From Candidatus Nanoarchaeia archaeon (GTDB taxonomy: Archaea > Nanobdellota > Nanobdellia > CSSed11-243R1), in the NCBI GenBank assembly GCA_028713895.1, contig JAQTNH010000001.1, positions 758,610 to 822,609 on the forward strand: a DNA stretch of 64,000 bases. The letters run 5' to 3'. Below are positions 50,027 through 52,401 of the stretch, in pieces; the first letter of the stretch is position 1, and the number at the start of each line of letters is the position of its first letter. The notes beneath the pieces were generated by a model. The model had not been told where the DNA came from and made no database searches. It saw nothing but the letters and a program-made list of their open reading frames with translations. A program made the translations under genes and the position numbers.

Positions 50027-50485
<459 letters not shown>

Positions 50486-50489
50486 TTAT

Positions 50490-50523
50490 TGGACTAGGAG
50501 GGATTCGAACCCTCAGCCTCCCA
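50490..50523 (-). other. orphan tRNA 3'-half-like sequence (positions ~40-73 of a second Ala-type tRNA)
   Basis: TGGG-AGGCT-GAGGG-TTCGAAT-CCCTC-CTAGTCC-A, 9 nt downstream of tRNA-Ala. Shares GGGAGGCT with tRNA-Ala, but the T stem and acceptor strand differ by compensatory changes; retains U70; no matching 5' half (GG[G/A]CTAG) seen in this window. Confidence 0.5.
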
Positions 50524-50532
50524 ATATATAAA

Positions 50533-50654
50533 TGGACCCGCCGGGATTCGAACCCGGAGCCTCCCGCATTTTGGTATCTAACGCCCTCCGCAAAATTTTC
50601 TTTTTTGCAAAAGAAATGTTTTAAGCGGACGCGATGCCGTTTCGCCACGGGCCC
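50533..50654 (-). tRNA. tRNA-Ala(GGC) with two BHB introns (33/34 and 37/38) separated by a 4-nt micro-exon
   Basis: Hand-folded. Exons 50654..50623, 50585..50582 (GGCG), 50568..50533 (72 nt); introns 50622..50586 (37 nt; central CCGC/GCGG, bulges UU|A and AG|G) and 50581..50569 (13 nt; central UUGG/CCAA, bulges CG|U and AA|U). Mature GGGCCCG-TG-GCGA-AACGGCA-TCGC-G-TCCGC-TTGGCGT-GCGGG-AGGCT-CCGGG-TTCGAAT-CCCGG-CGGGTCC-A with the Ala identity pair G3.U70. 72+50=122 nt matches the span. Confidence 0.85.
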
Positions 50655-51967
50655 TCCTTGAATTCATCCAAACACCAATACATCTTGTCGACGTATCTAT
50701 TTGCAAGTTCTATATCTGTTTGGGTTGCGTGTTTGTCCTTTTCTAATAGGACACCAACTACTTTTAAATCTTTATTTATCATTTCTTTAACCATAAAACC
50801 ATATCCTATTAACTCCTTGAATCCCTTTTTTGAAAAAAAGTATACTGTATCCTCAGAACTTTCATCTGAAACAAAATAAGTCTCATATTTAGTTTTAAGT
50901 AATTTCTTTCCGAGTAATTTCACTTTTTCTTTCAAAATGTCTCTTATAATATTCTCGCTTTCAATGAAATCTTTATTTGATTCGCATTGAGCATTTGCTT
51001 TTGAACGGATACTATTCGACTTTAGTTCTGTGTTCAAACAATTATCAATTTGAATAAAATCTGTTTTATTGTTACAGATTAATTCATGTTTTATATCCAT
51101 AAACTTGGTATTATTCAAAATTATTGGCACGATTCCTGTATCAAGTAAATATTTTGCAATTTCAAGCTGCATTCTCTTTGGAGTTTTCCAATTTTGGTTT
51201 TGGATTTCAAAGCTTATCAAAAGAGGAACATTTAGCTTAATTCTGCTTAGTTTACGCTTTATCCTTGCGATGTCATAATACATTGCGCTCTTTTTCTTTT
51301 TTAGACCAACAACTTCTTCCAGTGCAACGATTTTATTATTTTTGTAATAAACAAAATCTATATTGCATCCATTAATTTGTTTATGAACCTCAAAAGTTAT
51401 GCCTTTTAACGTTTCATTTTGTTTTTTAACCTTTAATTCAAGGCGGTTTAGTTCTGCATGTTCTGCGCCTTTATTGCCTAACTTGCTATAATAATCTGCA
51501 CCATACCTTTTCAGTAAGGTTTGTTTTGATTTAGCATGTATTTCTTTGTTAGTTTTGAAGAATTTCAAGAGATTATACCATTTCTGTCTTTGTAATCTGC
51601 TATACTCTTTAGGACTTTTTGTTTTCATCTCATGATGCCATCTTTTAATTCCTGCAATCCTTTTTTGAAGCGCATCACTATTCCCTTCTTTAATCTTTTG
51701 ATTAGTAATCATGGCGCCTTTAGAAGCGCCCCAGTTATGGTTTAACAGAATTCCACTATTAATGTATAATTCTGCTTCATCTTTCGGGAAATTAGTTAAG
51801 AGATACTCTGGGAGTGTTTGTTCTCCTCTTGCCCATCCTTTAAGGGTATTGTAGTTAATATTCAACTTGACTGAAAGTTCTTTTAGTGATTTTGAATTAG
51901 TATACTGTTTTAAGTTGATAAAGAGTTTTTTGTTAATCTCTTTGTTAAGCATTAATCTTTTTTCCAT
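50621..51967 (-). CDS. HTH-containing hypothetical protein, possible endonuclease-like core
   Basis: 448-aa ORF; N-terminal HTH-like SLKELSVKLNINYNTLKGWARGE (similar in style to the LAGLIDADG protein N-terminus); mid-region NIDFVYYKNNKIVALEEVVGLKKK resembles a PD-(D/E)xK/Vsr-like core (weak). The last 11 codons (GPWRNGIASA*) are read from the 5' part of tRNA-Ala. Confidence 0.5.
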   Translation of the reverse strand: MEKRLMLNKEINKKLFINLKQYTNSKSLKELSVKLNINYNTLKGWARGEQTLPEYLLTNFPKDEAELYINSGILLNHNWGASKGAMITNQKIKEGNSDALQKRIAGIKRWHHEMKTKSPKEYSRLQRQKWYNLLKFFKTNKEIHAKSKQTLLKRYGADYYSKLGNKGAEHAELNRLELKVKKQNETLKGITFEVHKQINGCNIDFVYYKNNKIVALEEVVGLKKKKSAMYYDIARIKRKLSRIKLNVPLLISFEIQNQNWKTPKRMQLEIAKYLLDTGIVPIILNNTKFMDIKHELICNNKTDFIQIDNCLNTELKSNSIRSKANAQCESNKDFIESENIIRDILKEKVKLLGKKLLKTKYETYFVSDESSEDTVYFFSKKGFKELIGYGFMVKEMINKDLKVVGVLLEKDKHATQTDIELANRYVDKMYWCLDEFKEGPWRNGIASA

Positions 51968-52070
51968 TTTAAATCACCGAGCCGACTGGGGCGAAAGCGC
52001 TTTACGAAGTTTTCGGTTTCACCGAAAGCTCGATAAAGCAAGCTGAGCCAGGCTCACAGGTGATTTAAAA
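51967..52070 (+). other. long-stem structured element with canonical BHB geometry on the + strand (putative 73-nt excisable segment 51985..52057)
   Basis: 12-bp helix TTTTAAATCACC/GGTGATTTAAAA, 4-bp helix GAGC/GCTC, 3-nt bulges CG|A and AC|A on opposite strands, inner helix CTGG/CCAG, three internal hairpins. On the minus-strand mRNA the same helix pairs the GGTGAT SD and abuts the ATG of the 448-aa ORF. Confidence 0.45.
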
Positions 52071-52096
52071 GAAATAATACTATATGGGTTTGTCGG

Positions 52097-52122
52097 GGTG
52101 TTGTCCAGTATGTCCAGTAATC
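52097..52122. promoter_or_regulatory. conserved 26-nt element, copy 2 (GGTGTTGTCCAGTATGTCCAGTAATC)
   Basis: 26/26 identical to copy 1; 130 nt upstream of the 448-aa ORF ATG (minus), followed in minus sense by CATATAGTATTATTT; 37 nt upstream of the + gene ATG at 52159. Confidence 0.5.
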
Positions 52123-52158
52123 CTAATATTTTTATGCTTACGCTGCATGTATCTTAGC

Positions 52159-52401
52159 ATGGCAAAAAAGGTGAATGTGACTCCAAAACAGATTGTGCAC
52201 ATTGTGCTCATATTTGTGCTGTTTGCAGGAAGCCTTTTCGCGTGGTACAACTCGTTCAAAGAAACCGGGCTGTTCTGCGGAGCTCAGACATGCGCAACTT
52301 GTGCAACAGCAACAATGTTGGGCGTGCCTATTTGCGTAATCGGGGCAATATTTTTCACAATCGCGCTTGTTTTGGCAGCTGCGCTGTGGTTTGTGGAATA
52401 A
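52159..52401 (+). CDS. small membrane protein with CxxC motif
   Basis: ORF 52084..52401 trimmed to ATG 52159 (MAKKVNVTPKQIVHIVLIFVLFAG...CGAQTCATCATA...). Confidence 0.45.
   Translation: MAKKVNVTPKQIVHIVLIFVLFAGSLFAWYNSFKETGLFCGAQTCATCATATMLGVPICVIGAIFFTIALVLAAALWFVE

Follow-up and report, generated by a model that had tools for sequence, protein, structure and literature searches.

A hairpin cassette in front of archaeal homing-endonuclease-type genes as a candidate Shine-Dalgarno clamp on read-through transcripts

The window analyzed here is a 64,000-nucleotide stretch of DNA, C1:758610-822609 of its own 1.07-Mb DPANN metagenome-assembled genome, and at positions 51967-52070 it carries a long hairpin directly in front of an open reading frame (ORF) of 448 amino acids on the minus strand. 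We propose, with a probability that we put at about one half, that this hairpin serves as leader in a portable cassette of promoter and leader, where it would clamp the Shine-Dalgarno (SD) sequence of read-through transcripts and be bypassed by transcripts from the cassette's own promoter. The ~160-nt cassette would drive free-standing genes of the homing-endonuclease type and would act on the minus (mRNA) strand. Its distal arm would be an anti-SD that clamps the SD together with the spacer and the initial base of the AUG, and its promoter (TACTGGACA repeats, RCACCC and ATAWAG) would start transcription at the first or second base past that arm. The gene's own mRNA would then be free of the clamp, opening with a stable 5' hairpin domain and leaving the SD accessible, while transcripts entering from upstream, either by read-through from a neighbor or as antisense of a divergent neighbor, would carry the arm and have their SD locked. 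Under such an arrangement the nuclease would be translated only upon firing of the dedicated promoter, putatively one of a DNA-repair regulon.

A hairpin cassette in at least ten copies

A first-pass annotation of the window had described the hairpin from its plus strand, and the letters of the window read exactly as quoted there, in the order outer helix, GAGC, CGA, CUGG ... CCAG, GCUC, ACA and outer helix. The 12-bp outer helix that it drew is borne out, the arms at 51967-51978 (TTTTAAATCACC) and 52059-52070 (GGTGATTTAAAA) being 12 nt each and 100% complementary, with 80 nt between them. The 121-nt region folded with -48.7 kcal/mol on the plus strand (z -7.17) and with -44.8 kcal/mol on the minus strand (z -5.62), and on either strand 0/200 shuffles were as good. 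In the minimum free energy (MFE) fold a 5-bp helix, GAGCC/GGCUC, is followed by a 6x1 internal loop. The annotation had further enclosed three separate hairpins within the outer helices; the MFE fold keeps only the middle one, UUUCGG/CCGAAA, the interior being one long irregular hairpin, and the GCG-AAAG-CGC hairpin is missing from the second of two sequence types found among the copies described below.

For the hairpin, the Rfam 15 covariance models gave no match at the gathering threshold in the window and nothing meaningful at E<=1 over 50400-52300. Two candidate elements were set aside: a kink-turn or L7Ae site, since Watson-Crick pairs follow the 3-nt bulge and no 3-nt loop adjoins the tandem G.A (as judged by eye), and a C/D box small RNA, of which CUGA is present but RUGAUGA absent. 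The leader holds just one small ORF, a GUG frame of 12 codons.

The first-pass annotation had proposed a search for homologous structures upstream of ORFs, and the cassette proved to exist in at least ten copies, each before an endonuclease-type gene: three in the window's genome, six on metagenome contigs and one in a genome of another order of the same class. Searching the DNA of the genome to which the window belongs gave copies B (C1:455621-455749) and C (C1:686782-686909), a pattern scan gave the six metagenome copies (L044-L048 and L051), and a covariance model (R1) run over 401 genomes of the class gave a divergent copy, G393 (L041:487-593). No further copy was found by covariance model over 201 genomes of the order to which G393 belongs. 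An exact pattern for the core of the bulge-helix-bulge (BHB) motif discussed below (CACCGAGCC...GGCTCACAGGTG) returned only chance matches in high-GC bacteria from 185k species genomes; none of the six pattern matches in viral contigs fit the covariance model (0/6), and the metagenome candidates L049, L050 and L052 were chance matches.

All ten copies share one layout on the minus strand, consisting of the TACTGGACA-repeat/RCACCC/TATA promoter, a 12-nt distal arm, a 70-80-nt hairpin, and a proximal arm with the ATG. The window copy has two tandem TACTGGACA repeats at 52102-52119, an operator-like part of the promoter that is present in all ten copies. These are followed at 52080-52101 by ACACCC, a stretch resembling a transcription factor B recognition element (BRE; CGACAAACC) and a TATA-like CATATAG, which together align with the RCACCY-TAAAnnnnATAWAG of leaderless regulon members. 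A variable spacer of 8-9 nt (52071-52079), kept in length and not in sequence, leads from the TATA element to the distal arm or anti-SD, UUUUAAAUCACC (52059-52070), which is complementary to 51967-51978 and, counted from the predicted transcription start, occupies about -13 to -1 or -2. The start itself (U52058/G52057) is predicted within a UGU 'bulge' at 52056-52058 (ACA on the plus strand), at the 22nd/23rd nt after ATATAG. The structured body of the leader (51979-52055) comprises, on the evidence of MFE folds and covariation, a 5-bp helix P2 (GAGCC/GGCUC) that closes the long irregular hairpin P3-P5, and the proximal arm, GGUGAUUUAAAAUG (51965-51978), contains the SD at 51973-51978, a 5-nt spacer and the start codon of the 448-aa ORF at 51965-51967.

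The sequence common to the loci amounts to only ~160 nt, that is, the hairpin and ~55 nt on its distal side. The distal arm is identical in eight of ten copies, and matches at 11/12 nt in L046 and at 10/12 in G393. On the plus strand 'CAT' directly adjoins the proximal arm in 10/10 copies, and the N-termini of the ORFs that begin there are unrelated. For the spacer, the window copy has TATTATTTC, five of the metagenome copies have GTACTCCG and L046 has TATAACATC, and the promoter of the metagenome copies has the standard form GCACCC-TAAAACCCATATAG. The interior types and the promoter variants assort independently among the copies, which points to recombination between copies.

The ten copies together with compensatory changes in the interior establish that the hairpin is real, repeated and under selection, beyond what chance would give. 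The apical part differs between sequence types 1 and 2, and the types are separated by three compensatory double changes, at 35:75 (G-C/U-A), 36:74 (C-G/G-C) and 41:68 (C-G/U-A); in L046, moreover, the fifth pair of P2 (C19:G96) has changed from C:G to U:A. A loop core, GGCGAA / UGAGC(C) (window 51990-51995 and 52042-52049), is conserved in all copies, including G393, which has kept the architecture and the GGCGAA/UGAGC core and has otherwise diverged in sequence. Taken together, the compensatory changes and the conservation in G393 indicate that a single-stranded fold is under selection.

The Shine-Dalgarno helix and the predicted transcription start

Read on the minus strand, the proximal arm provides the 448-aa ORF with GGUGAU, the spacer UUAAA and the AUG, and the pairing of this GGUGAU with an upstream AUCACC, pointed out in the first-pass annotation, is seen in the sequence. 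The 3' end of the 16S rRNA (...GGAUCACCUCCU) contains AUCACC, which makes the SD a genuine one and the distal arm (AAAUCACC) a mimic of the ribosomal anti-SD. A perfect 12-bp helix covers the SD, the spacer and the A of the AUG, the SD/anti-SD pairing is present in 10/10 copies, and in five of the metagenome copies the helix reaches the U and G of the AUG as well. A second partial complement of the SD, ATTCAAAATCAC (mRNA sense), lies at 51886-51897, ~70 nt inside the ORF, and is 83% complementary to 51966-51977; it occurs in the window copy only and is probably due to chance.

We calculated the cost of opening GGUGAU by partition function, both for transcripts begun at the predicted site and for read-through transcripts begun 60 nt upstream. 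In nine of the ten copies the cost was 0.8-5.3 kcal/mol for the former and 10.1-14.1 kcal/mol for the latter. For the window copy, opening required at least 12.4 kcal/mol when transcription started at 52070 or upstream, 8.4 kcal/mol from 52066, 4.0 kcal/mol from 52062, and at most 1.5 kcal/mol from 52061 or below (about 1 kcal/mol at the predicted start). The arrangement therefore amounts to a switch whose state depends on where the 5' end of a transcript lies.

Where the cassette promoter starts can be predicted from its relatives. The TACTGGACA repeats and RCACCC precede at least 15 other genes of the window's genome, and in every cassette copy this module lies on the minus strand and points toward the hairpin and the ORF. 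In eight other genes of the genome that carry RCACCY-TAAAnnnnATAWAG, the ATG follows RCACCY by 35-37 nt, which is 22-24 nt after ATAWAG; a further module gene, in L044, has its ATG at 37 nt. A constant distance from TATA to ATG is typical of leaderless archaeal mRNAs, which start at the A of the ATG and have the TATA centered at about -26, and the constant distance in the eight module genes therefore implies that their mRNAs are leaderless. Downstream of ATATAG, the cassette has first the spacer, 8 nt long in metagenome copies and 9 nt long in genome copies, and next the 12-nt arm, and with both spacer variants (8+12, 9+12) the 22nd/23rd nt after ATATAG is the U/G of the UGU just past the arm. 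On the strength of the 22-24-nt spacing in the eight leaderless genes, we infer that transcription of the cassette would start with one of the two bases directly past the distal arm, U52058 or G52057. The region equivalent to the arm is not conserved in promoters of the same family that lack the hairpin, so the promoter itself does not account for the conservation of the arm.

The SD-sequestering leader that the first-pass annotation had offered as one of its readings is thus upheld in part: the SD/anti-SD pairing precedes an endonuclease gene in all ten copies, but it would not act on the gene's own mRNA, since the anti-SD arm lies upstream of the predicted start. Promoter, SD and ATG context show, as far as sequence can, the minus strand to be the transcribed sense strand. 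The outer helix of G393, in which a U.G pair on the mRNA strand corresponds to C.A on the plus strand, also favors the mRNA strand. A count of G.U and A.C pairs over the hairpin was set aside as a means of assigning the strand, being ambiguous, with a register shift possible on each strand.

With respect to transcripts arriving from outside, at least four copies have co-directional genes 50-370 nt upstream, the one in L051 being the end of a metS operon. A decayed extra cassette on the reverse strand of contig L047 (~2602-2760 in reverse-complement coordinates) has kept its promoter module intact; its distal arm is mutated (TTTAGATTTATT), most of its hairpin is deleted with GCTCGGTGATTTAAAA kept, and the start codon before its LAGLIDADG frame (KISNNLAYFVGAMQADGY) has changed from ATG to ACG. 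We count this cassette, with its hairpin lost and its start codon ACG, in favor of the clamp bypassed by its own promoter. Other endonuclease genes of the genome, such as the LAGLIDADG gene at C1:74496, use the same module leaderless, and leaderless initiation also ties translation to initiation at a gene's own promoter.

Counterevidence and rival explanations

A number of observations weigh against the proposed clamp and bypass. The predicted start derives from a spacing rule with an uncertainty of about +/-2-3 nt, and a start at least 8 nt further upstream would make the clamp constitutive. In G393 the cost of opening the SD is 5.0 kcal/mol from the predicted start and 6.3 kcal/mol from upstream, a small gap between the two forms of transcript. 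The immediate upstream neighbor of all three copies in the window's genome is divergent, so that only antisense transcription could provide read-through at these copies. At the locus of copy B (C1:454480-454660) the stop codon of the LAGLIDADG gene overlaps the GTG (GTGA) that opens the metS frame (VIVIKNILVCSAWPYAQAIPHLGN...), and the homing endonuclease gene seems to stand first in an operon that it shares with the essential metS; this overlap implies that the cassette promoter may need constitutive activity, a poor fit with tight silencing. The hairpin interior raises difficulties of its own. A simple clamp needs no conserved interior of 70 nt, and the interior is 0.1-5 kcal/mol more stable on the plus strand, where a U.G pair of type 1 and a G.U pair of L044 correspond to C.A/A.C on the mRNA strand. 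The conserved loop core forms a tandem sheared G.A/A.G motif in the plus sense only, and reads as tandem U.C/C.U mismatches in the mRNA sense. These plus-strand features are an unexplained point in favor of some role of the plus strand or of the DNA itself.

The best of the rival explanations, although we consider it unlikely, is a leader that sequesters the SD constitutively. Transcription would then start upstream of the distal arm and every mRNA from a gene for a homing endonuclease (HEG) would be clamped over 12-14 bp, its translation being very low or freed only by a trans factor, a helicase, temperature or processing. Perfect pairing that takes 10-14 kcal/mol to open is what such a leader would show, all the more with the helix extending over the U and G of the AUG in five metagenome copies; homing endonucleases need only trace expression, the conserved core GGCGAA/UGAGC could be the binding site of a factor, and the prediction of the start is indirect. 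It is nonetheless the spacing in the eight leaderless genes, 22-24 nt from ATAWAG, that places the start past the arm with both spacer variants, and the conserved part of the cassette has no second canonical TATA/BRE (RAAAC-TTTTTAAA) suitably upstream of the arm.

We regard as distinctly improbable that the hairpin is an element of the DNA, whether a site for a dimeric regulator or for the TATA-binding protein (TBP), a cruciform, or a recombination arm for the swapping of endonuclease ORFs. A role of this kind would suit a strand-neutral structure that folds well on both strands, and both arms contain TTTTAAAT, the standard TATA box of the genome's tRNA promoters; neither arm, however, is preceded by a BRE-like RAAAC. 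As for the arms serving as working TATA boxes for sense RNA, we discarded this candidate, in which transcripts would start inside the covarying hairpin. Exchange of ORFs is suggested by the fusion of the cassette, exactly at the ATG, to unrelated ORFs, by the independent assortment of interior types and promoter variants, and by the occurrence of two different HEGs at one locus: L044:1658-2530 and L045:1021-1890 are one chromosomal site, with flanks 90% identical, at which two unrelated LAGLIDADG genes are found, each behind the cassette. The compensatory changes in the interior helices, on the other hand, indicate selection on a single-stranded fold, and the proximal arm is fully accounted for as SD, spacer and AUG. 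A MITE (miniature inverted-repeat transposable element) or other small non-autonomous transposable element was likewise rejected, every copy standing between the promoter module and the ATG with zero spacing; target-site duplications were not found, and neither the genome nor the viral contigs held copies outside the promoter-ATG context.

Less probable again is the plus-strand BHB substrate that the first-pass annotation had put forward, in which EndA would cut between CG and A and between AC and A and release 51985-52057 (73 nt), possibly circularized by RtcB, for example as an antisense regulator of the HEG leader. In a tRNA intron at 37/38, the 5' strand runs through h (27-31), H (32-35), a bulge (36, 37, i1) and h', and the 3' strand through h', H, a bulge (i, i, 38) and h (39-43), where i denotes intron nucleotides. 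It follows from this geometry, in agreement with the annotation, that the canonical stagger lies on the plus strand and its mirror image on the minus strand. By definition, a BHB motif is a helix of 4 bp with a 3-nt bulge on either side (PMC7714728), and one can be drawn on the plus strand of the window copy; it is not the preferred fold, lying 2.4 kcal/mol above the window MFE. Constraining the fold to it in eight copies cost 5.9 kcal/mol over the MFE in L051 and 2.4-2.6 kcal/mol in the other seven.

The 3-4-3 geometry with the correct stagger is drawable in eight of the ten copies, but these eight are nearly identical there and therefore do not constitute independent evidence, and the divergent copies have lost the motif, L046 in that its 3' bulge has 2 nt and its inner helix is broken, G393 in that the central helix is missing. 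The change of C19:G96 to U:A in L046 supports a fifth pair in P2, which excludes a 3-4-3 geometry with a central helix of 4 bp, and four copies (B, C, L047 and L051) have a U.C mismatch within the inner helix CUGG/CCAG. There is more to commend a BHB than geometry, given that the genome is rich in BHB introns (27 of 41 tRNA predictions by ARAGORN carry one), that the plus strand folds slightly better, with G.U pairs and a conserved tandem G.A loop not found on the mRNA strand, and that HVO_1309 provides a precedent for a BHB intron in a 5' untranslated region (UTR) (PMC7714728). A conserved plus-strand promoter, however, was not found, the plus sequence upstream of the hairpin being the antisense of ten unrelated coding regions, different in each copy, and the flanks joined as if ligated yield no ORF or other gene and match no Rfam RNA. 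Since the BHB strand is antisense to the sole promoter-ORF arrangement, has no conserved promoter, and has lost the motif in L046 and G393, the proposed excision by EndA and RtcB of a 73-nt (circular) RNA from a plus transcript finds no support here. If the hairpin is instead a clamp on the minus strand, the BHB geometry opposite would be a by-product, in which UGU/ACA would correspond to the initiator region and the other 'bulge' would belong to an asymmetric internal loop. This reading would remove a false positive from the candidate non-tRNA BHB substrates.

Least probable of all is that both strands work, the clamp in the mRNA sense being joined by occasional plus transcripts (for example from convergent tRNA read-through in L044/L045) that the broad-specificity EndA of this lineage, rich in introns, would cut at the BHB to a 73-nt, possibly circular, leader-complementary RNA further silencing the endonuclease.

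Endonuclease genes, their neighborhood and known systems

The ORFs behind the cassettes are, as judged from their sequences, putative genes of the homing-endonuclease type. Pfam recognizes LAGLIDADG in seven of ten; the ORF of copy C has LAGLIDADG-like motifs by eye only, and that of L048 is a truncated helix-turn-helix (HTH) N-terminus resembling that of copy B. The 448-aa ORF of the window (50621-51967, minus strand), which has an HTH-like N-terminus and two nuclease-like domains, matched neither Pfam nor PHROG; a word-indexed search returned only the protein itself, and a sequence search of the PDB returned nothing. It has 17 relatives at E<=1e-10, among which H195, D204 and E218 are invariant. 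Its AlphaFold 2 (AF2) model had a predicted local distance difference test (pLDDT) score of 86, and a single-sequence AF2 model one of 35. Fold matches to the model were weak, none at E<=0.001 and with probabilities of 0.77-0.98, and those to nucleases were all of the PD-(D/E)XK type (two-domain BsmI, Can2, NucS, SfsA and Card1). On the model, the protein looks like a tandem PD-(D/E)XK nuclease behind an N-terminal helical DNA-binding region and is probably a site-specific DNA endonuclease; it would found an unannotated family and is a candidate for a new type of free-standing homing endonuclease.

The endonuclease units adjoin essential genes: that of the window a tRNA gene, that of copy B metS, and those of L044 and L045 tRNA-Cys. 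In the last two, each of the unrelated LAGLIDADG genes is convergent with tRNA-Cys, and the antisense of the 3' end of the tRNA encodes a C-terminal tail (QRDPGVEPGCFALQANT) common to both. The tRNA gene of the window (50533-50654, minus strand; Rfam tRNA 49.6 bits, and predicted with introns by ARAGORN) is overlapped by the final 11 codons of the 448-aa ORF. The tRNA genes of the genome have a very uniform promoter, RAAAC(C/T)-TTTTTAAA, which ends ~25 nt ahead of the mature 5' end and is seen ~25-35 nt upstream of most of them, but the window tRNA is without a strong RAAAC-TTTTTAAA promoter over 50533-50700 and may be served by transcripts that run through the nuclease gene or by a weak promoter inside it (CAAATAGATAC at ~-45). 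At 50490-50523, 9 nt past the full tRNA, the 3' half of another tRNA (GGGAGGCU-GAGGGUUCGAAUCCCUC-CUAGUCCA) stands by itself; its T-stem differs from that of the full gene by compensated changes, and it looks like the remnant of a gene replacement or of homing at this site.

Among archaeal leaders, the closest counterpart to the geometry of the hairpin is the BHB intron of 46 nt on the mRNA strand in the 5' UTR of HVO_1309 of Haloferax volcanii, for which a circular product was sequenced and EndA cleavage was observed in vitro; archaeal pre-rRNA processing stems are also BHB (Schwarz et al. 2020, PMC7714728). Both leaders have a hairpin in which a 4-bp helix and two 3-nt bulges can be drawn, with an excised size of 46 nt there and 73 nt here. 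Unlike that of HVO_1309, the canonical stagger of the cassette falls on the antisense strand, the copies do not conserve the motif, and any excised product would be a predicted one. With the leaderless genes of the TACTGGACA/RCACCC module the cassette shares the module, its orientation and the TATA element; in contrast to most of them, in which the ATG follows RCACCY by 35-37 nt, the cassette adds the anti-SD arm, a structured leader of ~90 nt and an SD.

Free-standing homing endonucleases must be expressed without harm to adjoining host genes, and to our knowledge the regulatory solution has so far been worked out essentially in T4-like phages only. The same device, a hairpin over the ribosome-binding site (RBS), controls the T4 genes e, soc and 49, and RBS-sequestering hairpins of phage homing endonuclease genes are reportedly also the subject of work by Gibb and Edgell in 2007 and 2009. 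In I-TevI, I-TevII, I-TevIII and segB of T4 and in mobE of Aeh1, the RBS hairpin forms only on long early/middle transcripts, and transcripts from the late promoter cannot form it (Edgell, Gibb and Belfort 2010, PMC2988022). As in these phages, a stable hairpin here pairs the SD of an endonuclease gene with an upstream complement, the gene is embedded beside essential genes, and a dedicated promoter would start inside or after the 5' arm and so escape the clamp, the start being predicted from spacing here and the long transcripts being untranslated in T4 and Aeh1.

If this is true, DPANN archaea would have reached a T4-like solution, an SD clamp bypassed by a promoter that fires just inside it, and would have packaged it as a portable cassette for many unrelated LAGLIDADG and other nuclease genes, wired to a DNA-repair-type regulon. 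Most archaeal mRNAs are leaderless, and the cassette would be a concrete example of leader-based translational control in archaea; it may also account for the persistence of nucleases beside tRNA and aminoacyl-tRNA-synthetase genes. The differences from the phages are nonetheless considerable. The host is an archaeon and the promoter of the TATA/BRE type, where the phages use a sigma-dependent late promoter; the enzymes are LAGLIDADG or PD-(D/E)XK-like, where those of T4 and Aeh1 are GIY-YIG or HNH; and in place of a short stem-loop there is a hairpin of ~100 nt with a conserved, covarying interior. Unlike the phage hairpins, moreover, one and the same cassette recurs nearly unchanged in at least ten unrelated endonuclease genes, together with a regulon-type operator in the form of the TACTGGACA repeats, and it is this archaeal, cassette-borne and regulon-linked form of a known regulatory device that is new.

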